Source of the DNA: Dehalococcoidia bacterium
GTDB lineage: Bacteria > Chloroflexota > Dehalococcoidia > GIF9 > UBA5629
DNA length: 64,000 nucleotides
Reading direction: 5' to 3'
Assembly: GCA_050011565.1 (NCBI GenBank)
Contig: JBEKIW010000004.1
Span: 60,553-124,552 of the forward strand
The translations under genes and the position numbers were made by a program. Below are positions 7,155 through 57,472 of this stretch, one piece after another. How positions within the stretch are numbered: position 1 is the stretch's first letter; every line of letters begins with the position of its first letter. Below the pieces are notes generated by a model that was given only the letters and a program-made list of their open reading frames with translations, did no database searches and was not told where the DNA came from.

Positions 7155-8192
7155 ATGCTAAATCAAGTTGAAGAGCTTGCCTCTAAAGCTCTTGATGAGC
7201 TAGCTAAAGTCACCAATGTCAATGAGATTGAAGCGTGGCGAATCCGTTATTTAGGCAGAAAAAGTAATTTAATACATATTCTGCGTTCGTTGGCAACTGT
7301 GCCAATAAATGAAAGGCGTGAAGTCGGAGCCCGAGCCAACGAACTAAAGAAATCTCTGGAAACCGCTTTTGAAGAGAAGAAGGTTGATTTAGAAAGCGAT
7401 TCAGCCCTTCTCACCGGGCGTGAGACTTTAGATGTCACCTTACCCGGTCAGCAAATTCCCCTGGGCCGTCTCCATCCAACAACTCAAATACTTGAGGAGA
7501 TTTGTGACATTTTTAGCAGCATGGGTTTTCAAGTAGTGGAAGGGCCGGAGGTAGAATGGGACTATTATAATTTCGAAGCCCTCAACATGCCGGCAGACCA
7601 TCCGGCACGTGATATGTTTGCTACATTATGGGTGGACTTTGAGACTAAAACCGGCGACAGACCTATGCTCTTGAGGACTCACACTTCTCCAGTCCAGATA
7701 AGAGTAATGGAGAAAACACCTCCACCGATCAGAATAATAGCACCGGGGCGAGTTTATAGATACGAAGCCACAGATGCCACGCACGAGTGGATGTTTTATC
7801 AAGTTGAGGGGTTGGCAGTCGATAGAAACATAACCCTGGCCGACTTAAAAGGAACATTGTTTGAATTTGCTCGCCGCCTTTTTGGCGAGGACAGGAAATG
7901 TCGTTTTCGTTGTGATTACTTTCCTTTCGTAGAACCTGGCGTTGAGGTGGCTATTGATTGTCTGGTGTGTCATGGTGCTGGATGCAGGCTGTGCGACAAT
8001 AGCGGCTGGATTGAAATTCTGGGTGCGGGGATGGTGCATCCCGAAGTTCTTCGACGCCTTGGTATTGACCCTCAGATTTATTCAGGTTTCGCCTTCGGTA
8101 TGGGGGTGGAGCGTATTCCTATTCTTCGCTACGGCATAGATGACATTCGCCTTTTTTATGGTAACGACCTCAGGTTTCTGAAGCAGTTTTGA
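7155..8192 (+). CDS. pheS: phenylalanyl-tRNA synthetase alpha subunit
   Basis: 345 aa. Class II motifs ([29 protein letters not shown]). Conserved position after rplT. Confidence 0.9.
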
Positions 8193-8217
8193 GTCTATTT
8201 ATTGCCGAGACCTTAAT

Positions 8218-10623
8218 ATGAAAGTTTCACTTCGCTGGCTAAAAGAATACGTCGACTTTTCACTGCCGGTTGAGGAGTTGTCTGAACGGCTGACCATGGC
8301 AGGGTTAGAAGTTGGTGAGACAAAGGTAATTGGTGTAAATTGGGATAACATAGTAGTTGGCAAGATAATCGATGTTAATCCACATCCAAATGCCGACCGG
8401 CTGAAATTAGTAACCGTAGATTTAGGCAAACAGCATTCCACCGTGGTCTGCGGCGCACCTAACGTGGCCGTTGGTGACAAGGTGGCTTTTGCCCGGGTTG
8501 GAGCTCAACTCATAGATGGTCATAGCGGCGAAATGGTGCAATTAAAGCCAGCCAAGATTCGGGGCATTGTTTCTGAAGGGATGGTCTGCTCTGAGAAAGA
8601 ATTGGGGATTTCTGACAGTCATGAAGGTATTATGATTCTTCCCGGAGAAGCGATTATTGGTACTCCTTTGTCTGAATATATTGGCGATACGATTCTTGAC
8701 CTTGACATAACGCCAAACCGCCCCGATTGTCTATCCGTGATTGGTATCGCCAGGGAGATAGCGGCTCTAACGGGAAGCAAGATGAACGTTCCCGAAATTC
8801 ATTACAATGAGTCGGAAAGAGCGGTAGATTCCTATGCCGCTGTGCAAATAGTCGAACCGAACTTGTGTCCCAGGTATTGTGCCAGCTTGATGGCTGATAT
8901 CAAGGTAACTGAATCGCCGCAGTGGATGCAAGGAAGGCTGTTAGCTTGCGGTATGCGTCCCATTAATAATATCGTTGATGTTACCAACTATGTGATGCTG
9001 GAATACGGTCAGCCGCTTCATGCCTTCGACTTCAACGAGATACGCGGTAAACAGATTATCATACGCCGAGCTGCAAATGGTGAAGCCATAACTACGTTGG
9101 ACGGGGTACAGAGGACTCTCAACTCGAATATACTGGTGATTGCCGACAAAGAGAGAGCCATCGCTATTGCCGGTATAATGGGAGGAGCAGATTCTGAAGT
9201 TACAGAGAATACTACAACTGTTCTGATAGAGTCGGCGAATTTCAATCAGGCTGTTATTCATCGAGGAAGCCTTGGCCTCCGGCTGAGCAGTGAAGCATCG
9301 CTACGTTTTGAGAAAGGTCTTAGCCGAGACTTACCGCTAATAGCATTGAAACGGGCTACACAATTGTTGGCGGAGCTGGCTCAGGGCAAAGTGGCCAAAG
9401 GCATTATCGATGTTTATCCTGGCAAACAGCAGAAGGAGCCTATATTTTTTCCTGTCTCTGATGTTAGACGCCTTCTCGGAGTGGAGTTAAAGGCAGGCGA
9501 CGCATGCAAGACTTTGGAGCTACTTGGGTTTGGTTGTCGACAAGTGGAATATAATTCGCAACTTCAAGTAGTGGTCCCCTGGTGGCGCACGGACGTAAAT
9601 TGCACTGCCGATTTGGTTGAAGAGATAGCTCGCATTATAGGTTATGATAAAATCCCGACTACTATGCTGAGTGCCACGTTGTCAAGGTACGAGCCAGTGC
9701 CGATGCTGCATCTCAGACGACAACTGCGTAATATCCTTATCAGTTGTGGTTTTCAGGAAGTACTTACCTATTCCTTGACCAGTTTAGAGATGTTGGGGAT
9801 GCTTTCACCAGAGCTTCGTTTAATAGGCCCCAATCCGATGAAGGTGGCTAATCCGATGTCCAGAGAGCAAGAATATCTTAGGACCAGTCTAAGGGCTGGC
9901 CCGCTATCAGTTCTAGCTCGCAATGAAAGATATGAAGAGAACGGCATAAGACTTTTTGAGATTGGCAAGGTCTTTATGCCCAGGGAAATGGATTTGCCTG
10001 AAGAACACGAGATGCTTTGCGCTGTACTTAGTGGTTCCCAGCGCAGCTTATCCTGGCGCGGCGAAGAAGAGCCGGTTGATTTCTTCGTTGCCAAGGGAGT
10101 GGCAGAAACCATTTTATCACGGTTAGGAGTAGGGGTGAGATTTGAGTCAAGTCAAGACGAAAGCCTATTCCCCGGCAGAATCGCTGATATAGTGGTCGAA
10201 ACCCATAAATTGGGTACAGTTGGGGAACTGCACCCTAAAGTATCAAAAGCATTTGGAATTTCCGGGACTGCTTATCTTATTGAAATCGATTTGGATAAAT
10301 TATCATCCTTTACGGTCACTCTCAAAACATTTCAAGCCATCCCTCGATATCCGAGCACAAGTAGAGATATTGCGCTGCTGGTAGATGAAAAAGTAACATA
10401 TCAACAGATTTGTTTCATCATCCAGAGCTTTTCTCTAGTAAGCTCGGTTGTCCTTTTCGACTTCTATTTGGGAAAACAGGTGCCAGCGGGTAAGAAATCG
10501 CTGGCTTTCAGAATCGTTTACCAATCATCGACTCATACCTTGACCGATGGTGAAGTCGACGAAGTCCAGCAGCAAATTATCGATAAGCTGCAGCGCGAAT
10601 TAGGGGCCGTTTTGAGGAGTTGA
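8218..10623 (+). CDS. pheT: phenylalanyl-tRNA synthetase beta subunit
   Basis: 801 aa. N-terminal tRNA-binding (EMAP-like) domain, B3/4 and B5 domains, C-terminal FDX-ACB-like domain. Confidence 0.9.
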   Translation: MKVSLRWLKEYVDFSLPVEELSERLTMAGLEVGETKVIGVNWDNIVVGKIIDVNPHPNADRLKLVTVDLGKQHSTVVCGAPNVAVGDKVAFARVGAQLIDGHSGEMVQLKPAKIRGIVSEGMVCSEKELGISDSHEGIMILPGEAIIGTPLSEYIGDTILDLDITPNRPDCLSVIGIAREIAALTGSKMNVPEIHYNESERAVDSYAAVQIVEPNLCPRYCASLMADIKVTESPQWMQGRLLACGMRPINNIVDVTNYVMLEYGQPLHAFDFNEIRGKQIIIRRAANGEAITTLDGVQRTLNSNILVIADKERAIAIAGIMGGADSEVTENTTTVLIESANFNQAVIHRGSLGLRLSSEASLRFEKGLSRDLPLIALKRATQLLAELAQGKVAKGIIDVYPGKQQKEPIFFPVSDVRRLLGVELKAGDACKTLELLGFGCRQVEYNSQLQVVVPWWRTDVNCTADLVEEIARIIGYDKIPTTMLSATLSRYEPVPMLHLRRQLRNILISCGFQEVLTYSLTSLEMLGMLSPELRLIGPNPMKVANPMSREQEYLRTSLRAGPLSVLARNERYEENGIRLFEIGKVFMPREMDLPEEHEMLCAVLSGSQRSLSWRGEEEPVDFFVAKGVAETILSRLGVGVRFESSQDESLFPGRIADIVVETHKLGTVGELHPKVSKAFGISGTAYLIEIDLDKLSSFTVTLKTFQAIPRYPSTSRDIALLVDEKVTYQQICFIIQSFSLVSSVVLFDFYLGKQVPAGKKSLAFRIVYQSSTHTLTDGEVDEVQQQIIDKLQRELGAVLRS

Positions 10624-19449: not shown

Positions 19450-20692
<1,243 letters not shown>

Positions 20693-20731
20693 GTTTCTCC
20701 TCCTTAATATATGGGTGGTATTATTGCTTTC

Positions 20732-21517
20732 CTATTTATTTTCATCTGGTGTAAAGATATGTGATTCCAGTAGTTGGCCCGGTTCTGTATCGGTTGGAGT
20801 GAGCTCAGCCCTTCCTATTTCGCCGGTCTCTTTAATCATCTTGCCTTCAAGAACGGCATCAGCTATCTTGCTGCATATAAGTTTTATAGCCTTTATGGCA
20901 TCATCGTTAGCTGGAATCAGGTAATCGATATCTTCCGGATCACAATTAGTGTCCACAATAGCCACTACCGGTATGCCGACCTTTTTTGTTTCAGCCAGAG
21001 CTATCTTTTCCTTAGTTGGGTCTATGATAAATATGGCGCCAGGAAGGGTAGTCATTTCCTTAAAGCCGCCAAGAAGCTTATTTAGCCGGGCTATTTCCTT
21101 TTCAACCTTCATTTTTTCTTTCTTAGACAGGTAATCTAACTCACCTTTATCCCTTTGGTCTTCGAGACGCACCAGATAATCTATTCTCGCCTGGATAGTG
21201 CTGAAGTTAGTTAACATTCCGCCCAGCCATCTTTGGTTGACATAATACATACCACACCGTTTGGCTTCATCTTCTACTATTTCCTGAGCTTGCTTTTTAG
21301 TACCCACAAAGAGAATGCTTTGCCCATTGCTGACCAAATCTCTAACATAATTATAGGCCCTGTCCAGCATGACTACGGTCTGTTCTAAGTCGATAATGTG
21401 GATACCGTTGCGCTGTGTAAATATATAGCTTTTCATACGTGGATGCCAGTGGCCCGTGAGGTGTCCGAAATGAGCCCCGGCTTCCAGTAGTTGTTTAACT
21501 GAGATAGACTCCGCCAA
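20732..21517 (-). CDS. rpsB: 30S ribosomal protein S2
   Basis: 261 aa, typical S2 sequence ([10 protein letters not shown]). Confidence 0.9.
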
Positions 21518-21743
21518 ATTGTAACCTCCTAATCATATTAAACAGGTGAAACCAAGTTTTTGCGACTTACATAGGATTTTTGCCAAAGCCGCTCATCAGT
21601 ATAACATAAGGTGATTTCTGAGGCAATTGAACACATGGGACGTTCATTTAAAATTAAGGTGGTCTGATAACCCAAATGAGATGATTCAGTCACCCAGGAC
21701 AATTTAGTAGATATGTCAAAACCTTTCAACGTTAAGGTAAAGA

Positions 21744-21772
21744 CTTAGCCCCTCTAGATAAGAGGGGCTAAG
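21744..21772 (-). terminator. perfect 11-bp inverted-repeat hairpin downstream of an acyl-CoA dehydrogenase gene
   Basis: CTTAGCCCCTC-TAGATAA-GAGGGGCTAAG. Lies just past the stop of the minus-strand gene ending at 21799. The U-tract is weak. Confidence 0.35.
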
Positions 21773-21798
21773 TGAAGTGCCCTTGCAGCGGGAAGCTC

Positions 21799-22932
21799 TT
21801 ATTTTAAACCAATTTCCCGGGCTACCAGCTCCCTGTGGTAGTCAGTACTACCGAAAGAGGTGTCTGCAGCTTTTGACCTGCGATAATAAAGTGGTATATC
21901 GTGGTCATAGCTGGTGGCAATACCGCCGTGTAATCTTATTGCCCATTGTCCCACATCCTTATAAACCTCGTTGATATATGCCTTTGCCAAGGAGGCTTCT
22001 TTGGCACAGGGTTGTCCCTCTGATTCCATCCAGGCTGCCTGATAGACTAAATAACGGCCGGTTTGCATTGACGTCCACATGTTAGCCATTATGTGCTGAA
22101 GTGCCTGGAAGGCTCCGATAGGTCTTTCGTACTGAACCCTTTCTTTTGAGTACGCGACGGTCATTTCGATGCATGTTTGCATGGCCCCGACGGACTCTGC
22201 GCACTTAGCAATAGACCCTTTGCGCAACATCATTTCCACAATAGGCCATCCTGCGTCTATCTTGCCCAGCATGTTTTTCTTGGGTACAGCTACGTTCTCA
22301 AAGCGCACCTCGCACAGTTTATCTGCGCCTATAGTTGGTATTACTTCGCAGTGTATTCCAGGGGTCTTGGAGTTCACTAGAAACAGTGTGATTCCTTTCT
22401 CTGGAGAATCCCCGTCTTTGGTTCGGGTAACACAGACGATATAATTAGCAACATGGGCCATTTCAACAAAGAGCTTTGTGCCATTTATTATGAAGTCATC
22501 CCCTTTAGGTGTTGCTTTGACGGAAATTCCAGAAGCATCGAAGGTCCCTTCAGCCTCCAGAAGCGCCATAGTCATAATCAAACCTCCGCTGGCTATTTTG
22601 GGTAGGAACTCTTTCTTTTGTTCCTCGGTCCCGGCTTCCAGGATAGGGAAGGTACTTATTACCGTAGGAATCAGCGGTCCCGGGAGTATATTTCTGCCTA
22701 CCTCCTCTAACAGGACTGTCAGGTCCTGGAAGGTATAACCAATACCCTCGTATTGTTCAGGGATAACCAACGCCATCCATCCCAGCTCAGCCATCTTCTT
22801 CCAGAGCTCGGGGGAATATCCCTTCTCACTCTTTTCAAGCTCTCTCACCAGAGTTTTTGGGCATTCCGTGGTAAGGAAGTCCCGTGATGCTTTCTTCAGA
22901 ATCTCTTGTGCTTCAGTAAATCTAAGGTCCAT
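21799..22932 (-). CDS. acyl-CoA dehydrogenase
   Basis: 377 aa with N-terminal alpha, middle beta-barrel and C-terminal alpha ACAD domains. Confidence 0.85.
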   Translation of the reverse strand: MDLRFTEAQEILKKASRDFLTTECPKTLVRELEKSEKGYSPELWKKMAELGWMALVIPEQYEGIGYTFQDLTVLLEEVGRNILPGPLIPTVISTFPILEAGTEEQKKEFLPKIASGGLIMTMALLEAEGTFDASGISVKATPKGDDFIINGTKLFVEMAHVANYIVCVTRTKDGDSPEKGITLFLVNSKTPGIHCEVIPTIGADKLCEVRFENVAVPKKNMLGKIDAGWPIVEMMLRKGSIAKCAESVGAMQTCIEMTVAYSKERVQYERPIGAFQALQHIMANMWTSMQTGRYLVYQAAWMESEGQPCAKEASLAKAYINEVYKDVGQWAIRLHGGIATSYDHDIPLYYRRSKAADTSFGSTDYHRELVAREIGLK

Positions 22933-29174: not shown

Positions 29175-29222
29175 GAAAAAAACCAAGAGCTTTAGTAACC
29201 ACTACTAAACCCTTGGTTTGAT
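29175..29222 (-). terminator. intrinsic terminator forming the expression platform of the thiC TPP riboswitch
   Basis: Minus strand reads AACCAAGGGTTTAGTAGTGGTTACTAAAGCTCTTGGTTTTTTTC (imperfect stem with U7 tract), then RBS TAGGAGA and the thiC ATG. Confidence 0.6.
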
Positions 29223-29227
29223 TTACC

Positions 29228-29330
29228 GCTTCCCTACGCTTGTATTACCAAGGTCAGGTTCTGACGGTTCTCCGCAATAACGGAGTCTCAGCCTGGTTTA
29301 TTTTTCTGGGCACCCCTAGCGGTTAGCTAA
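29228..29330 (-). promoter_or_regulatory. TPP (THI-box) riboswitch aptamer
   Basis: Minus strand reads ...CTAGGGGTGCCCAG...GGCTGAGAC...CGTCAGAACCTGACCTTGGTAATACAAGCGTAGGGAA. Contains the invariant THI-box elements (GGGGUGCCC, CUGAGA, ACCUGAUCUGGAUAAUGCCAGCGUAGGGAA-like 3' half). Lies directly 5' of thiC. Confidence 0.8.
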
Positions 29331-31213: not shown

Positions 31214-31287
31214 GGCCCCGTGGTGTAGCGGACTAACATGCCACCCTGTCACGGTGGAGATCGTGGGTTCGAATCCCATCGGGGTCG
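31214..31287 (+). tRNA. tRNA-Asp (anticodon GTC)
   Basis: GGCCCCG acceptor stem pairing with CGGGGTC, D-arm GTGGTGTAGCGG, anticodon loop CTGTCAC, T-arm GGTTCGAATCCC. Confidence 0.85.
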
Positions 31288-36202: not shown

Positions 36203-38092
36203 GTGAAAAAAGTTCTGTTCTTATTGTTTACCTGTCTCTTACTTGTAGCGATTGTACTTCCTGCCTGTAAGCCTGGTCCAGCAGTTACCGGGCCAGTAAT
36301 AAAGATAGGCGTCATCGGGCCGATGCAATATATACAGGGCGAGCATCACTGGTGGGGTGCTGAGATGGCTCGTGATGAAATAAATGCGGCAGGTGGTGTA
36401 AAGGTCCTCCCTGACCAGCCCCCGTATATGGTTGAGCTAATCAAAGCAGACTCCAATGAAATAAACAGCATTACCGATGCCTCCGCGGCCATGGAAAAGT
36501 TGATAACGGTAGACAAGGCACAATTTGTGGTCGGGGGCTTCAGGACGGAAGCTGTCTTCCCCATGCAGGAAGTCGCCATGGACAACAAGATAATTTTCAT
36601 GAATTGTGGCGCGGCTACACTTGCACTACAAACGCCGGTGTTGACGAATTATGACCGCTATAAGTACTACTTCAGAGTCACTCCATTCCAATCCGGCTAT
36701 CTAGTCCAGAATGTGTTAATGTCAATGTCAATGGCCGAAAAAATAATAAAAGAGGATACCGGGATACAAAGGCCGTTGAATGCTGCTGTCTTTACTGAAG
36801 GGGCGCAGTGGGCTGATGCCATAACGTCAATCATGCAATCGCTGATTCCTACGAAGCTGGGTATGAAAGTCGTTGGCACATGGAGACCATCGCCTACAGC
36901 CACAGATTGTAATGCCGAGATGGCAGCTATACAAGCTGCTAACACCGACATTATCGGTGAAGTTATATCCGGCCCGCTTGGTGTACCATATGCCAGGTCA
37001 TGGGGCGAGCTGAAAGTACCGGCAGCTTCAGTGGGCATTAACGTTGAGTCCCAGGCTTTCACCTTCTGGGAAGCGACTCAGCATTTCGGCAACTTGGAGA
37101 CTGGCCTGGTTACATTAGCTGAGAACACAGCGGTTACGCCGAAGACTGTCCCGTTCTACAATGCCTTTGTAGCGAAGACCGGACAGCCACCCATATATAC
37201 TGGTGCCGGCACTTACGATGCCGTCTATACCTTGGCAGAAGCCATAACCCGGGCAGGGACTCTGGATTCAGATGCCGTGGTTGCTGAGCTGGAAAAGACG
37301 GATAGAGTTGGGGCTGGGGCCCGCCTTGTATTTACGGGTATTGATGATCCGTCGAAGGATCCTCACGACGTGACCTACGGTCCCGGATTTTCAACGGGTA
37401 TCGCCGGGCAGTGGCAGGATGGAAAATTGGTAGGTGTCTGGCCGAACCCTAACTATGTCGGGTATGTTCCGAATGATGCCTGGAAAACGGTGTCATATGA
37501 GGGAATGGTTAAGTGGATACCACGCCCCGAGCTAATCGACAAGTTGAAGGCCGAGGCGGCTACGCAACCGGCGGCACCCCCAGCGGGAGAACAACCTGCA
37601 GCACCTCCGGCGGGAGAACAGCCGGCAGCACCTCCAGCAGCAGGATTAGCGACTTACACCAACACCGAGTATGGTTTCTCCGTTCAATATCCTGGTGACT
37701 GGGTAGCGCGACCAGAGCTCATCATTAAGCCTGAATTCCAAAAGGCTGCATACGGTGTATCTGGCTTTGTTCCAGGGTTTGTTGCTTATGCCTTTGCTAA
37801 TCCTCCGGAGGAGTCTAAAGATTGGATCGTTACGTCTTTCAAGGCGACAGGCAATACAATGCCTAAAGTGACCTCAGACATCAAACAGGAGACTCTGGCG
37901 GATGGTACTCAAGCTTACACGTATAAAGCAAGCTATGTATCTGCCACTGGATATGGGATAGAGTCGTACGTCCTCGATGCAGATAAGGGAACCACCCGGT
38001 TTCGTGTGAATGTATTTACTATACCTGATATGGCTCCTATGGATGAGGCGCTGGCTTCGCAAGTTGCTCACTCTTTGACCTTTACAAAGTAA
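36203..38092 (+). CDS. Liv-type ABC transporter substrate-binding lipoprotein fused to a Pro-rich linker and a PsbP-like C-terminal domain
   Basis: 629 aa. GTG start, lipobox LPACK. Residues 30-440 are a periplasmic-binding-protein type I (LivK family) fold. Residues 455-480 are PAGEQPAAP x3. The C-terminal 150 aa begin YTNTEYGFSVQYPGDWV (PsbP-like hallmark). Confidence 0.7.
   Translation: MKKVLFLLFTCLLLVAIVLPACKPGPAVTGPVIKIGVIGPMQYIQGEHHWWGAEMARDEINAAGGVKVLPDQPPYMVELIKADSNEINSITDASAAMEKLITVDKAQFVVGGFRTEAVFPMQEVAMDNKIIFMNCGAATLALQTPVLTNYDRYKYYFRVTPFQSGYLVQNVLMSMSMAEKIIKEDTGIQRPLNAAVFTEGAQWADAITSIMQSLIPTKLGMKVVGTWRPSPTATDCNAEMAAIQAANTDIIGEVISGPLGVPYARSWGELKVPAASVGINVESQAFTFWEATQHFGNLETGLVTLAENTAVTPKTVPFYNAFVAKTGQPPIYTGAGTYDAVYTLAEAITRAGTLDSDAVVAELEKTDRVGAGARLVFTGIDDPSKDPHDVTYGPGFSTGIAGQWQDGKLVGVWPNPNYVGYVPNDAWKTVSYEGMVKWIPRPELIDKLKAEAATQPAAPPAGEQPAAPPAGEQPAAPPAAGLATYTNTEYGFSVQYPGDWVARPELIIKPEFQKAAYGVSGFVPGFVAYAFANPPEESKDWIVTSFKATGNTMPKVTSDIKQETLADGTQAYTYKASYVSATGYGIESYVLDADKGTTRFRVNVFTIPDMAPMDEALASQVAHSLTFTK
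37571..37645 (+). repeat. 27-nt tandem repeat (about 2.7 copies) encoding the PAGEQPAAP linker
   Basis: GCGGCACCCCCAGCGGGAGAACAACCT / GCAGCACCTCCGGCGGGAGAACAGCCG / GCAGCACCTCCAGCAGCAGGA. Confidence 0.7.
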
Positions 38093-38234
38093 CCATTTTA
38101 AATATTAGCGAGACCCCAGGCCAACGCCTGGGGTCTCGCCAGAGGCTTATCAGACGAATTGCCGGTCGGCAGTTTTTGAGGACGGCAAGCCTAGATTGAG
38201 AATGTTATATGGCAAATTAGCAAAAGGAGATGCG

Positions 38235-38879
38235 ATGACGAACAAGACATACAAATTCGTAACAGTGTTAATGGTCATGCTGCTTGTTCTGGGTCTGGCC
38301 TTAGTGGCCTGCAAGGCACCGGCTGAAACAGTAACGCCACCGGCTCCACCCGAACAACAAGCGACGCCACCGGCTGAACAACAAGCGACGCCACCGGCTG
38401 AACAACCAGCTACACCGCCGGCTGCACACCAACTGACATATACAGCTAAAACATATACTAATAGCCAGTATGGCTTCTCAATCCAGTACCCAAAGGATTG
38501 GGTAGAGCGCCCCGAAATCGCCAATGGGAGCCTTATCATTGCCTTCGGTGTACCCGGGTTCGTTCCTGGCGTAAGTATGAGTGTACGTGATGCAAATGAA
38601 CCTATGACTGCCGATTGGGTCGTGGCAGCGAATACGGCTGAGGGGAACACGAAGGTTAAAGTTACGTCACCTCCGACAGAGACAACTCTGTTTGACGGCA
38701 CGCCGGCAGTTCAGTACGTATCGAAGTTTACGTCTGGACAATACGACATTGTTTCTTTTGCCACCAGCACAGACAAGAACGGCAAGCGGATTCGTGCCAC
38801 TGTATGGACTATAGACGCGTTCTCTCCTTACGATGAGGCACTGTTCTCTGAGATAGCACACACCTTGTCAGTTAAATAA
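38235..38879 (+). CDS. PsbP-like domain lipoprotein with a Pro-rich linker
   Basis: The start is more likely the ATG at 38235 (RBS AAAGGAGA) than the ORF-track 38196. Lipobox LALVACK, PPAEQQAT x3 linker, then YTNSQYGFSIQYPKDWVERPE... This is homologous to the C-terminal domain of the upstream SBP. Confidence 0.6.
   Translation: MTNKTYKFVTVLMVMLLVLGLALVACKAPAETVTPPAPPEQQATPPAEQQATPPAEQPATPPAAHQLTYTAKTYTNSQYGFSIQYPKDWVERPEIANGSLIIAFGVPGFVPGVSMSVRDANEPMTADWVVAANTAEGNTKVKVTSPPTETTLFDGTPAVQYVSKFTSGQYDIVSFATSTDKNGKRIRATVWTIDAFSPYDEALFSEIAHTLSVK
38333..38420 (+). repeat. 24-nt tandem repeat (about 3 copies) encoding the PPAEQQAT linker
   Basis: CCACCGGCTGAACAACAAGCGACG repeated, with minor variation. 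Confidence 0.7.
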
Positions 38880-39013
38880 GAAATCGTTTTAGTCCTGTAT
38901 GGAGGCTGCAGGCCGGTTACAGTCTGTAGTCTCCATGAAGGTTAGCGGAACAAGTATGCCGTTTGGTACCGTAGAGTTAGGCAAGTAAGATTGAAGGTTA
39001 GGTAAGATAAGAT

Positions 39014-39886
39014 ATGGTTGAAGGAATTATAGTTCAGACTCTGGTGAAAGGAAGTGTATATGCGCTCCTGGCTCTCGGTTTCGCCCTAATCTTTGGGGTA
39101 GCCCGGGTGCTACAGCTGTCGCATACCGCGTTTTACATGCTGGCAGCCTACGGGATATTTGCTTTCGCCAGCTTACTCGGTTGGAGTCCGATTGTGTCCA
39201 TTATCCTGTCTATAGTCATTACTACCGGGCTGGGGCTTCTGGTGTACAAGCTACTTATCGACCGTGTACGTGAGCACCACGTAACCGTGATGCTGATAAC
39301 CCTGGCTGTAGCCATGATGTTTCAGCAGATCATGATTATTGCCTTCTCAGGTCAATATCGTTCAGCGCCGGCTTTTGTCACAGGATACTGGGAAATACTC
39401 GGCGTAAAAGTCGTCTTCCAGAATTTGCTGGTATTTGCTGGTGCGGCGGTTGTTCTGCTCATCGTATGGGCGCTTTTGTCAAAGACAAGACTGGGTATTG
39501 CCATCAGGGCTACCGCTCAGGACACCGAAATTGCCAATCTAATGGGGATAAATGTCTCCACTATACTGTTCACGGTTATGGGTATTGCCGCGGCACTGGC
39601 CGCGGTTGCCGGCGTGCTGGTGGCTCCAACGTTGGTCCTTGAACCTGGTATGCTGTGGCCTCCATTCGTCATGGTCATGGCGATAATTACTCTGGGTGGT
39701 CTGGGAAGCGTCAAGGGAAGTGTCATCGGAGCTTTTATTCTGGCCCTGGTTGAAACCCTGGTTGTTTTCTTGCTGCCTACCGGTGCCTTTCTTAAGGGGG
39801 CCGCCGCCTTGCTGGTCATGGTGATAGTACTCATTGTAAGGCCTGAGGGTCTATTTGGCGTAGTTTTCGAAGAGGAGAGATTGTAA
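39014..39886 (+). CDS. branched-chain-amino-acid-type ABC transporter permease (LivH family)
   Basis: 290 aa with about 8 TM helices, LivH-like. Confidence 0.85.
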   Translation: MVEGIIVQTLVKGSVYALLALGFALIFGVARVLQLSHTAFYMLAAYGIFAFASLLGWSPIVSIILSIVITTGLGLLVYKLLIDRVREHHVTVMLITLAVAMMFQQIMIIAFSGQYRSAPAFVTGYWEILGVKVVFQNLLVFAGAAVVLLIVWALLSKTRLGIAIRATAQDTEIANLMGINVSTILFTVMGIAAALAAVAGVLVAPTLVLEPGMLWPPFVMVMAIITLGGLGSVKGSVIGAFILALVETLVVFLLPTGAFLKGAAALLVMVIVLIVRPEGLFGVVFEEERL

Positions 39887-39887
39887 A

Positions 39888-40937
39888 TTGCTAAGTAGAT
39901 TATTTAAAGATTTTCAGGGCGATGTAGTGGCCATACCGGGCAGGTTAATAGCTTTAATTTTCTTTGTGCTCTTGTTTCTAATTCCTGCATTTACACAGCA
40001 GCCTTACATACTGCGTATGCTGATTTTTACGAATATGTTCGTTATCTTCGCCGTAAGCTGGGATTTTATATCCGGCTATACCGGCCAGTTGAACTTCGGT
40101 CATGCCCTCTTCTTCGGGGTGGCCGCCTACACGACAGCTTTGCTGAACAGGGGAGGCGACCTGGGCCCGCACTGGCCAATATGGGTAACCATACCGCTGG
40201 GTGCCATTGCAGCGGTAATAGCCGGCGTTGTCATGTGTTTGCCGGCATTGAGGTTGAGGGGACCCTATCTGGCTCTGGTAACCCTGGCGTTTCCACTTAT
40301 TCTTCTCGGGGTTATTTTCTCTTTTACCAAGTTTACCGGTGGTGAGTTAGGAATTTCCGGTATTGACCGCATTTCCGATTCCAGAACAGTAGAGTACTAC
40401 ATCTCAGTGCTCGTCATGATCGTCTCGGTATTCATAATGTGGAAGCTTACGGATGCCCAGAGCGGCCTGGTCAGGACAGGGATTATTCTTCATGCTATAC
40501 GCGAGGATGAAATTGCAGCTCGCGCCAGCGGAATAAATACAATACGATATAAGCTGTTCGCCTTTGCTGTAGGCGGCTTCTTCGCCGGAATAGCAGGCGG
40601 CTTTTATGCGCACTTCCTGAGAATTGCCGGTCCTTCCTCCCTGGACCTTACATTGTCGTTCCAAGCCATAATATGGACTGTTTTCGGAGGTATTGTTAGC
40701 ATTTACGGGGCGGTGGTGGGGGTTTATATACTTTATCCTCTGATGGAGTCCCTGCGTTCTATCTCGGAGTACCGGATGTTAATCTTTGCCGTCATAGTGA
40801 TACTGATTCTTCTTTTCATGCCTGAAGGCATTGCCGTCTGGATACGGGACAAGATTGAGAGACAATGTCCACGTTGCAAGCTGACTAATGTGTCATGGCG
40901 TCATACCTGTAGAGCTTGCAGCGCTGACCTGTACTAG
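39888..40937 (+). CDS. ABC transporter permease (LivM family) with a C-terminal CxxC..CxxC tail
   Basis: 349 aa polytopic. Last 30 aa: CPRCKLTNVSWRHTCRACSADLY. Confidence 0.85.
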   Translation: MLSRLFKDFQGDVVAIPGRLIALIFFVLLFLIPAFTQQPYILRMLIFTNMFVIFAVSWDFISGYTGQLNFGHALFFGVAAYTTALLNRGGDLGPHWPIWVTIPLGAIAAVIAGVVMCLPALRLRGPYLALVTLAFPLILLGVIFSFTKFTGGELGISGIDRISDSRTVEYYISVLVMIVSVFIMWKLTDAQSGLVRTGIILHAIREDEIAARASGINTIRYKLFAFAVGGFFAGIAGGFYAHFLRIAGPSSLDLTLSFQAIIWTVFGGIVSIYGAVVGVYILYPLMESLRSISEYRMLIFAVIVILILLFMPEGIAVWIRDKIERQCPRCKLTNVSWRHTCRACSADLY

Positions 40938-50468: not shown

Positions 50469-51719
50469 TCAGGCCTGGCTGTCCTTTTTCAGGATATAGT
50501 CCCGGACAATTTTAAGAGATGCTTCAACCAGCTCCGGTTCAATAGATTCAGGGACATCATCCGGTGTGTGATACACGAGGTCCTCACCGAATTTTCCGAT
50601 ATCAAAGCTAATACCCGCCATATTGATGGCTTCAACGCCGAGCTTGCCGAATTCAGCGGCATCCGTGCTGCCGGCACCGAAGGGCATAGAGGCGATTCGG
50701 GCGGGATAACCCAGCGATTTAGCAGTATCCACACAATCCTGCGCCATGGCACGGGACAGCCTCACGGTTGAATTCAGGTCTTTGTCCAGAAAAGTGAGGT
50801 CTTTGAGCTTGTAAAGCGTGTCGATATTAAAGACATAGGTCTTGGTGTTCAGCAATTCTTGGCCGTGTTTATTACAGAAGGCACGCGCGCCGCGGAGCCC
50901 GGCTTCCTCGGCATCGAAAGAGGCTACTATTAAGCGGGTGTGACGCAGAGGATTTTTGCCCGCTTTTTTAGCCTGATGGAATAGCCGGGCCGTCTCGCCG
51001 GCAACGGCTACGGCAATCATGTCATCGCCGGCAGCGGGAGATACCTCTCCCGTGGTGAAGAAGGCCAGCGGCAGCTGGAAAATGCCGCCGACCATCAGGG
51101 CCACAGGTACCCAGAGTAGGATCCCGTCGGGAACAGGGACTTGAAACAAGGCCAGCACGATCCAAATCAGCGAGACGAGGAAGCCGAGCAGCAAAAACAG
51201 TATGCCGGCGTTGATTAGCCTGGCATAGTATTTCGGGGCATAAGCCAGTAGCTGAAAGACATAGGCGGCGTCATGATGGGCGCTGACCACGACCTGCTGC
51301 TTTACCTCGCCTTCAGGTTCGATAGAGCCGTAGACGTTGTAGCCGGTGGCTTTGGGGAAATAGGGGTCGAGCAATTCCCAGTAGCGGACAAACTGGGCAT
51401 AAAACATGAAGATTGCCAGGCCGTAGACGACAAGCGCCGTCAGCGGGAGCCCGAAATATAATAGAACAGCGCCGGCAAAATAAAGGACGACGAGGGCGGG
51501 GATATATTTCAGGAAGCTCTTAGGGTGGACCGTGAAATCTTCCACGTGCACCGAGCCCGGGTCACAGTGCTTAATGAATTCCTGTTTTATGCGGTCGGCG
51601 GCATTTTTACAGGCTTCCGTTCCAGCCAGGCGGTTGGGGTAGTTCTGAACGACTTCATCGGTGAAGTTGAAGACTCGACGGACGTGGGTTTTGGTTATGT
51701 TCAGGCTGCGGGTTTTCAT
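50469..51719 (-). CDS. M28-family zinc peptidase with membrane-spanning insert
   Basis: 416 aa. SAHHDAAY and DAEEAGLRGA metal-binding motifs. A central block of TM helices is present. Confidence 0.65.
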   Translation of the reverse strand: MKTRSLNITKTHVRRVFNFTDEVVQNYPNRLAGTEACKNAADRIKQEFIKHCDPGSVHVEDFTVHPKSFLKYIPALVVLYFAGAVLLYFGLPLTALVVYGLAIFMFYAQFVRYWELLDPYFPKATGYNVYGSIEPEGEVKQQVVVSAHHDAAYVFQLLAYAPKYYARLINAGILFLLLGFLVSLIWIVLALFQVPVPDGILLWVPVALMVGGIFQLPLAFFTTGEVSPAAGDDMIAVAVAGETARLFHQAKKAGKNPLRHTRLIVASFDAEEAGLRGARAFCNKHGQELLNTKTYVFNIDTLYKLKDLTFLDKDLNSTVRLSRAMAQDCVDTAKSLGYPARIASMPFGAGSTDAAEFGKLGVEAINMAGISFDIGKFGEDLVYHTPDDVPESIEPELVEASLKIVRDYILKKDSQA

Positions 51720-51767
51720 GGCGTTGTCTGCTGCCTATGTTAAGGCGCAGGTGGATGGTTGTCAACT

Positions 51768-51875
51768 GGAAATCCCCCTTTATCCCCCTTTTTCAAAGGG
51801 GGAAATAGGCTTCTCCCTTTCCTAAAGGGAGATTGAGAGGGATTTTACCTTCTTACAAATCCCCCTTTATCCGCT
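51768..51875. repeat. structured intergenic repeat element, copy A (one full unit of about 77 nt plus a partial unit)
   Basis: AATCCCCCTTTATCCCCCTTTTTCAAAGGGGGAAATAGGCTTCTCCCTTTCCTAAAGGGAGATTGAGAGGGATTTTA, then CAAATCCCCCTTTATCC. Nested palindromes: CCCCCTTT/AAAGGGGG, TCTCCCTTT/AAAGGGAGA, outer AATCCC/GGGATT. Confidence 0.65.
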
Positions 51876-52024
51876 CGAGCGCATTTCCGTTATTTTTGAC
51901 ACTTTACTGAATAGGTTGTACCATTCTCTGCCCAATGATATGTATTTCCAACGACCGAGCGAGTCAAGATTCGGATGGCTTTCAGCTATTCGACCTTTCG
52001 CGAAGTCTATTTTAAGGAGGACTA

Positions 52025-52801
52025 ATGAAGCGTTATAAATACCTGTTATTGTGTCTAACTATTGTCGTGTCTATTGTCTCACTGGGTGGTTGTCTTGTAT
52101 CATCCTCTACTCAGTCTGAAATCCAACTACCAACCCCAAGCAGTACACCGGCGATGCCGCAGATTGGGGCACTGGTTACCTTGCCCAGCTTTGCCGATTT
52201 GACGGATACCGTTAAGCGTTCGGTGGTAGCCATTGACACCGAGACCGTTGTTACCAGAAGATATATTCAGCGCACTATCCCGGGTGCCGGCTCGGGATGG
52301 ATAATCGATGAAAGCGGCATCATCGTAACCAATAATCATGTAATCGAAGGTGCACAAACTATTACGGTGGAACTGGAAAACGGTAAGACGTACACTCCAG
52401 TAAGCATCAAAACTGACCCCGATTCCGATATAGCGATACTTAAGATTAATGCCGGGAAGCTACCGGCTCTCAAAGTTGGTGATGCCTCGAAGCTGAGGGT
52501 TGGGGATTGGGTGGTAGCGGTAGGAAACGCGCTGGGAATGGGCATAAGTGTTAAAGACGGTATCGTCAGTCGTCTCGGCGTGAGCATTCAAATATCTCCA
52601 AGTGAAACGTATTCCAATCTAATTGAAACCAATGCCGCAATTAATCCCGGCAACAGCGGCGGTCCGCTGGTCAACCTGGCGGGAGAGGTAATCGGCATAA
52701 CCAGCCTGAAACTCGCTATTGGCGGCGTCGAAGGGATGGGATATGCCATAAATATAGAAGATGCGCTGCCGGTGATTCAGAGGCTATTCAAATCAATTTA
52801 G
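52025..52801 (+). CDS. secreted trypsin-like serine protease (S1C/HtrA-like, no PDZ domain), lipoprotein
   Basis: 258 aa. Lipobox LGGC. His (TNNHV), Asp (DIAILK) and Ser (GNSGGPLVN) catalytic triad motifs. Confidence 0.8.
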   Translation: MKRYKYLLLCLTIVVSIVSLGGCLVSSSTQSEIQLPTPSSTPAMPQIGALVTLPSFADLTDTVKRSVVAIDTETVVTRRYIQRTIPGAGSGWIIDESGIIVTNNHVIEGAQTITVELENGKTYTPVSIKTDPDSDIAILKINAGKLPALKVGDASKLRVGDWVVAVGNALGMGISVKDGIVSRLGVSIQISPSETYSNLIETNAAINPGNSGGPLVNLAGEVIGITSLKLAIGGVEGMGYAINIEDALPVIQRLFKSI

Positions 52802-52886
52802 TTTACCCGCTTAAATAGAAGCGATGATTTATGATTCTTGCTAATTGTGGTAAATTTTAGGCTGAATGAAATCAAAGGAGGGCTAT

Positions 52887-53084
52887 ATGGCGGCAAAAAG
52901 TGAATATCAACGGCAGCTAACTATTCTTTTAATATCTTTTCTGGCAGGCTATTTCGGTCTGGACCGTTTCTACCGGGGAGAAATAGCACTGGGCGTTATT
53001 AAGATGATAACATGTGGCGGCCTTGGAGTGTGGTATTTAGTGGATGTAGCTATTGCTGCCTATCAATTTGGAAAGCTTGACTAA
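52887..53084 (+). CDS. TM2-domain small membrane protein
   Basis: FGLDRFYRGEIALGVIKMITCGGLGVWYLVD matches the TM2 domain signature. The start is likely the ATG at 52887 after AAGGAGGG (the ORF track begins at 52866). Confidence 0.6.
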   Translation: MAAKSEYQRQLTILLISFLAGYFGLDRFYRGEIALGVIKMITCGGLGVWYLVDVAIAAYQFGKLD

Positions 53085-53110
53085 TCCCGAAGCTAACCGT
53101 TAAATTAAGG

Positions 53111-53138
53111 CCTTTTCACCTGAGGGCAGGTGACAGCT
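53111..53138 (+). terminator. hairpin after the TM2 gene
   Basis: TCACCTG-AGGG-CAGGTGA. 7-bp stem with no clear U-tract, so it is weak. Confidence 0.25.
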
Positions 53139-53143
53139 AGAGC

Positions 53144-53289
53144 AAAAATCCCCCTTAATCCCCCTTTTTCTAAGGGGGAGACGAAGAATAAAAGTTAGAA
53201 GTAGGGATTTAAGATCCCCCTTAACCCCCCTTTTCCAAAGGGGGAAATAGACCTCTCCCTTTCGTAAAGGGAGATTGAGAGGGATTTTA
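53144..53289. repeat. structured intergenic repeat element, copy B (a diverged partial unit plus one full unit)
   Basis: ...AAAATCCCCCTTAATCCCCCTTTTTCTAAGGGGGAG...TAGGGATTTAAG ATCCCCCTTAACCCCCCTTTTCCAAAGGGGGAAATAGACCTCTCCCTTTCGTAAAGGGAGATTGAGAGGGATTTTA. The full unit is about 90% identical to copy A. Confidence 0.65.
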
Positions 53290-53290
53290 G

Positions 53291-54580
53291 CTACATTGCC
53301 GGGTTCGTGACGTGTCCGAGAAATAAGATCGCCCCTGTTTGAATGTCCCGAATTAGAAAGATAAAGGGGCGGTCAATGGTCACATCAACAACGTTCAATT
53401 GTAACGATGTGGTTGTCATAACAACCGCCGTAGCGGCGGCTGCCTCCGTGCCGACTTCGTCGACAGAAACAAATGCCTTATGAATCACGTCCGATATGTA
53501 TAGATCGCGCTTGCCGTCCATGCCTGAAAAATCAGCGTTCTCGGTAAAAGCCACCGGCATACCCATAGCACTGAGGGCTTTCTTCAGGCTGAAGTCGGAG
53601 GAGAATTCGTATTTGGGCATAGTCAACACGACTCGCTTGGAAGCTAAGCTGGCAATAATTCCGTCGACCTTACCGGCATCCAGAGACCTTTCAAACGTAG
53701 TGAACTGGCCGGGCTGAGGCAGCAGAATCACCATGGAAAGCTCGCTTCCGTCATAGGGCAATTCCACCGCCTGATAATCATCACCTTCTGCATAGGCAAA
53801 CGATTTTGTCTGTTTCATCATTGGCACGGTGACTTCACTGCCGGAGAGCAAGTGAAAGGTGCCATCGGCGGTGGCATCTTTCTCGAAGGGGAACTGCCAG
53901 GCGGCGTTGAAGTAGATGGCGTTGGTCAGGACCAGGCGGGTCATGGCGTCGATAGCGCCCGGTGGAATCAGGTCTTTAATCCTGCCTTCCGTCTGGTCGC
54001 TTACCCAGTCGTTAATAGTGACGCGCGATGGTTCAGGTGCGTTTATGAAATCGAGCGTTCTGATGCCGGCGCCGTAGTTCTCAGCCAGGATATCGAGGAA
54101 CTCCTGGAGAAAGGCGTAGCCCTTTTGTCCCCAGATGGCATTTACGATATTGAGTCTGAAGCCTTTCTCATCCTTGCCTTTGGCGCCCTGGCCACGCTGG
54201 CTTAGTTCTATATCCAGGCTATTGAGCGCCGGGTGAAGCAGTTCCTGCGGCAGAGTATAGTGGAGCGTGTTTGCCATTTGCTGCGCCGTATCGCCGCGGG
54301 CGCCGGCATAGGTCATAGCCAGTGCCAGCGAAATGCTGTAGGGTGAAAAGAAAACGTTTTCATCTCCTTTGATTTGTTGATAGGCGTCAAAGGCAAATGC
54401 GTTGTTGCCGTTTACCAGCGCGGCCAGGTCAGCCTGACTGGCGACTGGAGAAGTTATTCTTTGCTTATCCGATTTTACTGTCTGGCTTACCGGCTGCGCA
54501 CCAGGCGGCACGATACAGGCTGAACTGCCAATCAACATCATAGCAACTAAAATAACCGAAACCAGCAAATTGTTTTTCAT
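53291..54580 (-). CDS. serpin (serine protease inhibitor), lipoprotein
   Basis: 429 aa. Lipobox GSSAC. Serpin core motifs (FNAAWQFPF; hinge EVGTEAAAATAVVM typical of inhibitory serpins; C-terminal PFIFLIRD). Confidence 0.8.
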   Translation of the reverse strand: MKNNLLVSVILVAMMLIGSSACIVPPGAQPVSQTVKSDKQRITSPVASQADLAALVNGNNAFAFDAYQQIKGDENVFFSPYSISLALAMTYAGARGDTAQQMANTLHYTLPQELLHPALNSLDIELSQRGQGAKGKDEKGFRLNIVNAIWGQKGYAFLQEFLDILAENYGAGIRTLDFINAPEPSRVTINDWVSDQTEGRIKDLIPPGAIDAMTRLVLTNAIYFNAAWQFPFEKDATADGTFHLLSGSEVTVPMMKQTKSFAYAEGDDYQAVELPYDGSELSMVILLPQPGQFTTFERSLDAGKVDGIIASLASKRVVLTMPKYEFSSDFSLKKALSAMGMPVAFTENADFSGMDGKRDLYISDVIHKAFVSVDEVGTEAAAATAVVMTTTSLQLNVVDVTIDRPFIFLIRDIQTGAILFLGHVTNPAM

Positions 54581-57398: not shown

Positions 57399-57472
57399 TC
57401 GGGGTGGCCGGATTCGAACCGGCGACCACCTGAACCCCATTCAGGTGCGCTACCAGGCTGCGCTACACCCCG
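57399..57472 (-). tRNA. tRNA-Pro (anticodon GGG)
   Basis: Reverse complement CGGGGTGTAGCGCAGCCTGGTAGCGCACCTGAATGGGGTTCAGGTGGTCGCCGGTTCGAATCCGGCCACCCCGA. Anticodon loop ATGGGGT. Confidence 0.85.

Follow-up and report, generated by a model that had tools for sequence, protein, structure and literature searches.

Intergenic repeats of a Dehalococcoidia genome as members of the BoxC/PIT triplex-motif class, with DUF559 proteins as candidate partners

A 64,000 nt stretch of a Dehalococcoidia metagenome-assembled genome (MAG; GCA_050011565.1, contig JBEKIW010000004.1, positions 60,553 to 124,552 of the forward strand), referred to herein as the window and numbered from its first nucleotide, harbours two copies of a structured repeat in two neighbouring intergenic regions, designated sites A and B. 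These repeats probably represent dispersed intergenic DNA elements of the BoxC/PIT/G/C-rich intrastrand-triplex class, for which a DUF559-type nuclease is the candidate actor. They possess the architecture that places them within this class, belong to a widely spread family, lie between genes in a strand-neutral manner, and display rapid gain or loss of sequence at the edge of a module when close relatives are compared. BoxC was reportedly first noticed in Escherichia coli in the early 1990s, the names attached to it being Bergler and Bachellier, and was described anew as PIT (potential intrastrand triplex) elements, reportedly by Hoyne and Maher in 2000, and as TM_ECO in 2015. The modules of the window are an additional member of this class, known for decades, now from a Dehalococcoidia genome; they are not the E. 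coli motif TM_ECO itself.

A repeat search of the window identifies a 79 nt direct repeat (51772–51850 and 53214–53292, 91 % identity) and a 34 nt left (L) module present in three copies (Table 1). The complete units measure about 77 nt (51772–51846 at site A and 53214–53288 at site B, 91 % identical), and each is an inverted pair of one L and one right (R) module of about 34 nt, separated by an 8 nt spacer. An earlier note, made from the sequence alone, had described two copies of about 90 % identity built from nested palindromes, with a degenerate partial unit at each locus. All of these features are present, and the boundaries that it gave (51768–51875 and 53144–53289) correctly take in the complete and the partial units. 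The palindromes CCCCCTTTTTCAAAGGGGG (51784–51802) and TCTCCCTTTCCTAAAGGGAGA (51812–51832) are each duplicated at site B and occur nowhere else in the window, with a chance expectation of 0.00–0.04. Folding is also predicted to be strong: as RNA, the unit reaches about −38 kcal/mol (z −3.1 to −3.9), and for RNA or DNA the prediction alternates between a single long hairpin and a pair of hairpins held together by an outer AAATCCC/GGGATTT stem. The further proposal of a three-way-junction element of its own kind gives way to an inverted pair of two three-block modules.

Each module comprises, in order, a pyrimidine arm, a loop, a purine arm, a 3 nt loop and a mirror copy of one of the arms. This is most readily seen in the R module, which at site A consists of a pyrimidine arm, a purine arm and a mirror of the latter; in the example TCTCCCTTT-CCT-AAAGGGAGA-TTG-AGAGGGATT, the third block mirrors the purine arm and does not repeat it directly (AGAGGGATT against AAAGGGAGA). 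The L module is the R-type design read on the opposite strand, such that the example at site A displays two pyrimidine blocks and one purine block, forming a C-C-G motif on the plus strand and a C-G-G motif on the minus strand. The two subtypes can be told apart as a CCCCC type (L) and a CTCCC type (R). A strict triplex-motif detector (three blocks, 8 nt stems, no more than one mismatch) returns five modules in the 64 kb window, every one of them at sites A and B, whilst in 100 dinucleotide shuffles of the same sequence the mean is 0.03 and no shuffle has more than one.

With regard to published elements, a full-text literature search for the module strings of the window gave no match; Holder et al. 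2015 (PMC4666352) was reached only by way of the E. coli-type string GGGTTAGGGTGAGGGG. The TM_ECO motif described there has 23 copies in E. coli MG1655, all of them intergenic and strand-neutral, and forms inverted pairs at five sites, always of type A with type B (PMC4666352). The modules of the window are alike in build: three consecutive blocks (pyrimidine stem, purine stem and mirror purine stem) are found in all five matches, their placement is intergenic and neutral with respect to strand and orientation, and two subtypes are combined as inverted pairs. Likewise shared with TM_ECO are a pyrimidine stem of about 9 nt, a loop of 3–6 nt, a complementary purine stem, a 3 nt loop and the mirror purine stem, together with a widespread occurrence and additional rearrangement between strains. 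The 3 nt loop is TTA in TM_ECO type A and TTG or TAA in the window. The published pattern, CCCTCNCCC-N3-6-GGGNGAGGG-N3-GGGNGAGGG, is not matched by the modules of the window, the arms of which are CCCCCTTT and CTCCCTTT with A/T-rich ends, in contrast to CCCTCNCCC in TM_ECO. Alike in build and different in arm sequence, they belong to the class without being TM_ECO proper. The hosts differ also, being a Dehalococcoidia MAG here and proteobacteria and cyanobacteria for the known motifs, and the variant found in the window is common to many phyla, which is unreported for TM_ECO. Triplex motifs more generally are recorded from over 260 genomes, with cyanobacteria especially rich in them; a TM_ECO single strand forms a stable triplex in vitro, as judged by circular dichroism and nuclear magnetic resonance; loci bearing the motifs are more rearranged between strains than control loci; and no function common to the genes that flank them was found (PMC4666352). 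For BoxC, which an older E. coli GenBank annotation records as 56 bp in 33 copies, neither an origin nor an acting protein is established (PMC4666352). A resemblance to H-DNA is also apparent, in that both involve a homopurine–homopyrimidine mirror repeat and an association with breakpoints and instability; here, however, the mirror repeat is joined to a hairpin, so that one strand supplies all three strands of the triplex, and the element is a short dispersed repeat family and not a long tract.

The family extends well beyond the window. When the hairpin-1 pattern was run against GTDB, with each species represented by a single genome, at least 120 loci were found, where about 9 are expected by our own calculation under uniform base composition, and the R-module pattern gave at least 120 loci in metagenomes. 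The earlier note had named an absence of further copies elsewhere as the outcome that would leave only a local duplication; since both collection scans gave at least 120 loci, the repeat is not of that sort. Hosts among the hairpin-1 matches listed include Chloroflexota, Thermodesulfobacteriota, Gamma- and Betaproteobacteria, Nitrospirota, Patescibacteria, Aminicenantes and others. Within the 130 matches listed, which span many phyla, the block AAATCCCCCT upstream, lying outside the search pattern, is 82–92 % conserved, and a C in the module loop is conserved too. CTCCC-type R modules are regularly paired with CCCCC-type L modules, either as L-8 nt-R, as in the window, or as R-0 to 20 nt-L, a pairing found in many of the 122 metagenome matches listed. 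For the source genome, the copies observed are two sites (five modules) in the 64 kb window, which would fit a dispersed family, and further modules are present on other contigs of the same metagenome sample (L141, L165 and L170). A profile search of 124 loci recovered 242 modules, arranged as singles (51 loci), head-to-head pairs (27), tail-to-tail pairs (39) and direct pairs (32). Where the arms allow discrimination, the third block is a mirror of the purine arm in 284 cases and a direct copy in 30 across all loci fetched. The family is further represented in plasmids of cyanobacteria and Acinetobacter, as well as in 40 IMG/VR contigs; a blast of the unit against phage and plasmid collections returned partial, weak matches, amongst which three plasmid matches proved on reading to be true members.

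Several observations accompany this distribution. In nine related viral contigs (IMG/VR, L247–L286; e.g. L251 2150–2171 and L257 2477–2498), an L module lies beside structural-looking phage genes of the capsid region, and Haemophilus phage SuMu has a partial module match within its portal gene region. Other short repeats recur near the modules, for example GTCATTGCGAGCGAAGCGAAGCAATC-like sequences and TCATTCTGAGC...GAAGAATG-like hairpins (L317 4160–4360, L318 4160–4367, and flanks in L153, L216, L226, L241, L157, L178 and L234), which suggests that several small palindromic families occupy common intergenic sites.

Comparison with close relatives reveals how the two sites have changed. Three relatives at 82–92 % DNA identity (L317, from NCBI MAG GCA_049694415.1, and L318 and L319, from JGI) keep the gene order DUF362-M28-protease-TM2-serpin. 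Their alignment with the window proceeds through the M28 gene and the L module of site A, ends at 51803 and resumes at 51880; following 51803, the window has 76 nt (spacer, R module and truncated L module) as opposed to 962 nt in the relative. The L module of site A is kept at the orthologous place in L317 and L318, where the R module is absent, and the truncated L start sits at the right breakpoint of the differing segment. A second aligned block covers the protease, TM2 and the first L module of site B, ending at about 53181 (53156–53181), beyond which the window possesses 103 nt (a remnant and the complete L-R unit) versus some 208 nt of other repeats in the relatives. At site B, the older L module is thus the one kept in the relatives, whilst the L and R modules of the complete unit are absent from them, and L317 has lost one 10 nt pyrimidine block of its module. 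In both cases the difference starts precisely where a conserved L module ends, at its 3′ foot. The link to recombination or rearrangement suggested earlier accordingly finds support at both sites, which differ from the relatives by insertions or deletions starting at a module edge.

Two further details of site A can be recorded. An 807 nt SDR (adh_short) gene is situated between the M28 and protease genes in the three relatives and is absent from the window (51804–51879 against L317 1876–2837). In addition, exact 16 nt direct repeats of AAATCCCCCTTTATCC (51770–51785 and 51857–51872) enclose 71 nt of the site A element, and could be the footprint of slippage or template switching between pyrimidine blocks.

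The same comparison bears on whether the two copies serve as recombination sites at the ends of a mobile cassette made up of protease and TM2, as the description of the repeats as bracketing that segment might imply. The copies do flank a 1.3 kb segment, and module pairs 2–3 kb apart are known from other loci (L003, L008, L032 and L088). Against this, the protease and TM2 genes hold the same place between M28 and serpin in relatives of 82–92 % identity; the variable parts lie elsewhere, being the SDR gene and short repeat-rich stretches beside the modules; no integrase or recombinase is found among the neighbouring genes; and attC cores (RYYYAAC/GTTRRRY) are absent by inspection. A mobile cassette is therefore extremely improbable, and the most fitting account of the bracketing is that two adjacent intergenic sites are both occupied. 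An integron attC site was considered in its own right and rejected, as the R″/R′ cores RYYYAAC...GTTRRRY are lacking from the sequence and no integrase is found among the neighbours.

Placement relative to genes bears on a possible role at the RNA level. By crude open reading frame (ORF) calls, 121 of 142 module sites are intergenic (25 convergent, 12 divergent and 57 tandem), and single modules show no preferred orientation with respect to neighbouring genes (14 vs 13, and 11 vs 8). The earlier note had considered a transcription terminator or a small structured RNA, and one could extend this to an mRNA-stabilising 3′ hairpin or a translational element. The strong predicted folds (z about −3) are in keeping with such functions, as are the R module of site B, which ends 2 nt from the serpin stop with one terminator-like match (53274–53254, minus strand), and the purine block that stands as a Shine–Dalgarno-like sequence before the start codon in several loci, e.g. 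AGGGGGATTTATG before DUF559. However, single modules point either way, site A is upstream of both divergent promoter-like sites and not at a 3′ end, and the count of terminator-like sequences in the region (3) is not in excess of that in shuffles (1.9). An Rfam 15 covariance search of the unit gave only microRNA-type noise (14–21 bits, E 0.6–7), with no family assignable even at E<10, and a gathering-level scan of the whole window gave no match at the modules. Conservation extends to the loop bases and to the non-pairing third block, neither of which is needed by an RNA hairpin function, and the E. coli counterparts TM_ECO, PIT and BoxC have neither promoter nor terminator activity (PMC4666352). 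An RNA-level role is, on these grounds, unlikely.

The earlier note had also likened the repeats to a REP/MITE family, and here the comparison must be divided: dispersed, structured repeats resembling repetitive extragenic palindromic (REP) elements are indeed what is seen, but classical miniature inverted-repeat transposable elements (MITEs) are not. As with REP, BIME and REPIN elements, palindromic units of two subtypes in alternating orientation (cf. BIME Y/Z) occur as singles, inverted pairs and clusters in mostly intergenic positions, and sites between convergent genes exceed those between divergent ones (25 vs 12). One might accordingly take the module as a REP and the 77 nt unit as a REPIN, mobilised by a RAYT of the Y1 HUH transposase type. 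The defining feature of REPs is a GTAG (or CGTC) tetranucleotide at the foot of the palindrome (PMC3733652); no such tag is found at the hairpin foot here, where a position weight table of 130 modules gives AAAT / A-T-C. Using jackhmmer with approximate IS200 and RAYT probe sequences, a single RAYT was found in about 2 Mb covering some 280 module loci, and was confirmed with Pfam (L177, Y1_Tnp). This RAYT is flanked by GTAG REPs of its own GTAGCACAGGC type and not by the modules under study. REPIN/RAYT systems are described as lineage-specific and vertically inherited, whereas the module sequence is common to many phyla. The modules thus differ from REP/RAYT systems in lacking the tag and the RAYT association, in carrying a third mirror block and in being conserved across phyla, and mobilisation by a RAYT is quite improbable. 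The L177 locus is itself of note as an observation: a RAYT-like gene (8090–8720; Y1_Tnp, 23.2 bits) with the GTAG REPs GTAGCACAGGCCTCCGTGCCTGTGAGC and GCTCACAGGCAGGGACGCCTGTGCTAC has an R module 7 kb away on the same contig.

A classical MITE, in which an insertion sequence shortened by deletion retains its terminal inverted repeats (here AAATCCC...GGGATTT) and is moved by a DDE transposase, would account for the outer inverted repeat and for the presence/absence polymorphism between relatives. Target-site duplications, which the earlier note had proposed to look for, are not visible when either copy in the window, or any of about 40 complete L-R units, is inspected. All-versus-all ORF clustering of 120 and then about 280 loci yielded no enriched transposase or integrase, only generic families and one phage group, and no parent insertion sequence was found. 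Moreover, as modules occur alone and in R-L order, an element of fixed terminal inverted repeats is unlikely, and we regard the MITE reading as very improbable.

What does recur beside the modules is a different gene. The ORF clustering identified a protein of about 130 aa, similar to DUF559/Vsr (PF04480 and PF18741), in eight module loci. In Chloroflexi contigs, its gene is always located between carA and carB, followed by variable genes, and L and R modules of the variant found in the window stand on both sides of it but not beside the other genes there. In some of these contigs a module ends directly at the DUF559 start codon (AGGGGGATTTATG) and the ORF runs on into the downstream L module; the ortholog in L221 is without an upstream module. 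To widen this view, DUF559 loci were chosen from the plasmid collection by protein similarity alone, and the strict motif was present within 400 nt of the gene in 9 of the 13 loci inspected. The positives derive from Deinococcus (two species), Photobacterium, Azospirillum, Neisseria, Sphingomonas, Qipengyuania and Synechocystis; in a 40 kb stretch of Deinococcus, the sole strict motif lies 18 nt upstream of the DUF559 gene. Pseudanabaena and PCC 7002 carry versions of the module with shorter stems on both sides of the gene. The strict detector misses such cyanobacterial variants with 6–7 nt stems (L299, L300 and L307), as well as E. coli variants with mismatches (L309), and because it was too strict for these a polarity-controlled count of hairpins was added. 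Of 38 IMG/VR loci, 24 show a perfect pyrimidine-to-purine hairpin no further than 250 nt from the DUF559 gene, and the density of such hairpins is 2.33 per kb near the gene versus 0.17 per kb in the remainder of the same loci. With the polarity reversed, no hairpin lies near the gene and four lie far from it. DUF559 genes are, in short, statistically associated with modules, being flanked by them far more often than chance, which suggests a correlative lead on the acting enzyme.

Some features of these loci stand apart from the association itself. The carA–carB interval of Chloroflexi contigs L287–L297 (e.g. L293 2501–3835 and L294 2501–3780) contains, in addition to the fixed DUF559 gene, strain-variable genes, amongst them SLFN_AlbA_2, small ORFs and a gene for a CAP12-PCTIR TIR-domain protein. 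Numerous contigs end at this point, and the interval has the look of a minor hotspot of defence or variable genes within the pyrimidine operon. That DUF559 might be a multi-copy mobile gene, as its many short contigs could imply, was rejected for the Chloroflexi subfamily, all copies looked up being at the same carA–carB position. The chromid of Photobacterium sp. GJ3 (L308) harbours two tandem arrays of 14–18 triplex-type modules with a period of about 145 nt, at 20350–21935 and 36550–39920, the first of which begins about 50 nt past a DUF559 gene.

In E. coli, the corresponding gene is ycjD (b1289), annotated as a DUF559 protein. The 367 bp spacer between ycjD and fabI contains published TM_ECO no. 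9 (1,351,204–1,351,239) along with a pair of degenerate modules, of which one extends over the 3′ end of ycjD. The 56 nt E. coli module is itself dispersed, and a genome has it at a median of 16 places. When ycjD and its modules were used as a query against 5,426 complete genomes, ycjD was present in 3,378, and 60 genomes were sampled evenly down the ranking. In this sample, the 37 genomes with ycjD have 16–33 further BoxC places (median 22) and the 23 without it have 1–19 (median 5), the O25b:H4 example having one; this is a roughly fourfold difference (Mann–Whitney p = 9e-9). Holder et al. had themselves recorded 29 motifs in strain 55989 and one in IHE3034, and gave no explanation (PMC4666352). 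The neighbourhood of DUF559 is absent from their text, in which neither ‘ycjD’ nor ‘endonuclease’ occurs (PMC4666352), and in those papers on DUF559 and ycjD that were searched, no link of the protein to repeats was found.

The candidate partner has the fold and the conserved acidic and His motif of a nuclease related to Vsr (PF04480). YcjD was placed near Vsr in the PD-(D/E)XK superfamily in 2005, a structure of a DUF559 protein from Neisseria is available under the label of endonuclease-like protein (PDB 3HRL), and the residues D..E-x-D-G-x-x-H are invariant in a DUF559 alignment across five phyla. Vsr nicks T:G mismatches at Dcm sites, whereas no substrate is known for DUF559 proteins. On this basis a sequence of events can be envisaged. 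A module would fold into a hairpin or triplex when replication, repair or transcription leaves its DNA single-stranded for a short time; a nuclease specific for structure or sequence, for which the candidate is the Vsr-fold DUF559/YcjD-family endonuclease encoded by a gene flanked by the host’s own module variant, would nick at the foot of the folded module; and repair from other copies, by gene conversion or template switching, would copy, delete or swap the adjacent DNA. By analogy, the relationship would resemble that of RAYT transposases with REP/REPIN repeats, as in both the cognate repeats stand on either side of a small nuclease gene that is usually present in one copy, although the enzymes differ in kind, DUF559 having a PD-(D/E)XK Vsr fold and RAYT an HUH/Y1 fold. 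The broader proposal, that DUF559/YcjD Vsr-fold endonucleases are the cognate enzymes of BoxC/PIT/triplex-motif repeats and maintain or move non-autonomous modules genome-wide, is put forward tentatively, as a possibility somewhat short of probable.

A number of points weigh against a DUF559-driven triplex element. We know of no DUF559 protein with nuclease activity on these repeats, and the 64 kb window contains no DUF559 gene. Adjacency could equally reflect DUF559 genes inserting beside modules, or modules accumulating beside DUF559 genes. Amongst viral contigs, the strict three-block motif is near the gene in only 6 of 39 DUF559 loci, so that the link does not extend to every DUF559 gene but applies to a subset of the family and, in general, to modules of hairpin type. 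In E. coli, O157:H7 (e.g. NZ_CP066756.1) lacks ycjD and yet has 19 BoxC-like places, which could reflect recent loss of ycjD or another factor. A recent paper finds ycjD and the eefRABCD operon to be mutually exclusive at the fabI–sapF locus, following phylogroups, and as the presence of ycjD follows phylogroups the correlation with BoxC copy number is confounded by phylogeny. Finally, the TM_ECO triplex was looked for in vivo and was undetected, and no tie of the motifs to mobile elements was found (PMC4666352).

The features of both sites are collected in Table 1. Site A lies between the divergent genes for an M28 peptidase (50469–51719, minus strand) and a trypsin-like protease (52025–52801, plus strand), and site B between the TM2 gene (52887–53084, plus strand) and the serpin gene (53291–54580, minus strand), with its R module ending 2 nt short of the serpin stop codon (53291–53293); the gene context is as previously described, with intergenic placement around protease and TM2 and beside the serpin. 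Both promoter-like sites around site A are kept in sequence in L317. With site A in a spacer between divergent promoters and site B between convergent gene ends, the local effect of both is probably neutral. A 54 aa ORF (51661–51825, plus strand) reads through the L module of site A (…EIPLYPPFSKGEIGFSLS). The only Rfam matches at gathering level in the window are a TPP riboswitch (29214–29327, minus strand, 69 bits) and two tRNAs (31214–31287, plus strand, and 57399–57472, minus strand).

Table 1. Modules, partial units and promoter-like sites at sites A and B of the window
Feature	Position	Strand	Sequence and remarks
Promoter-like site for M28 peptidase	51737..51765	-	TTGACA-17-TAACAT; abuts left end of site A element; context only
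Site A L module	51770..51803	+	AAATCCCCCT-TTA-TCCCCCTTT-TTC-AAAGGGGGA; detector match 51772-51803 (-)
Site A L/R spacer	51804..51811		8 nt; AATAGGCT; site B counterpart AATAGACC
Site A R module	51812..51846	+	TCTCCCTTT-CCT-AAAGGGAGA-TTG-AGAGGGATTT; detector match 51812-51843 (+)
Site A truncated L-module start	51857..51872	+	AAATCCCCCTTTATCC; exact direct repeat of 51770-51785
Promoter-like site for protease	51896..51924	+	TTGACA-17-TACCAT; right of site A element; context only
Site B older L module	53146..53179	+	AAATCCCCCT-TAA-TCCCCCTTT-TTC-TAAGGGGGA; detector match 53148-53179 (-); 94 % identity
Site B partial unit	53204..53210	+	GGGATTT, read from sequence; apparently what is left of the end of an R module
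Site B L module of complete unit	53212..53245	+	AGATCCCCCT-TAA-CCCCCCTTT-TCC-AAAGGGGGA; detector match 53214-53245 (-)
Site B R module	53254..53288	+	TCTCCCTTT-CGT-AAAGGGAGA-TTG-AGAGGGATTT; detector match 53254-53285 (+)

For annotation, the modules are of practical concern, as they create spurious small ORFs (51661–51825) and lengthen real genes at the C-terminus (e.g. the DUF559 C-termini IPLTPPFTKGE); such repeat-derived ORFs and extensions are likely to be annotation artefacts. The modules also mark spots at which gene content differs between close strains. One module variant is common to many phyla nearly base for base, for which simple vertical descent is an insufficient explanation. The window contributes a Dehalococcoidia member to the BoxC class, and the main value of the analysis lies in the DUF559 lead, which renders an old question about BoxC testable; with E. 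coli genetics and a solved DUF559 structure (3HRL) at hand, that question can be addressed directly. Were DUF559/YcjD endonucleases to prove the cognate enzymes, they and their repeats would constitute a second, mechanistically different counterpart of the RAYT–REPIN system in many bacterial phyla, with the elements of the window as non-autonomous members, and this would explain both the conservation of modules across phyla and the collapse of BoxC copy number in E. coli lineages without ycjD.

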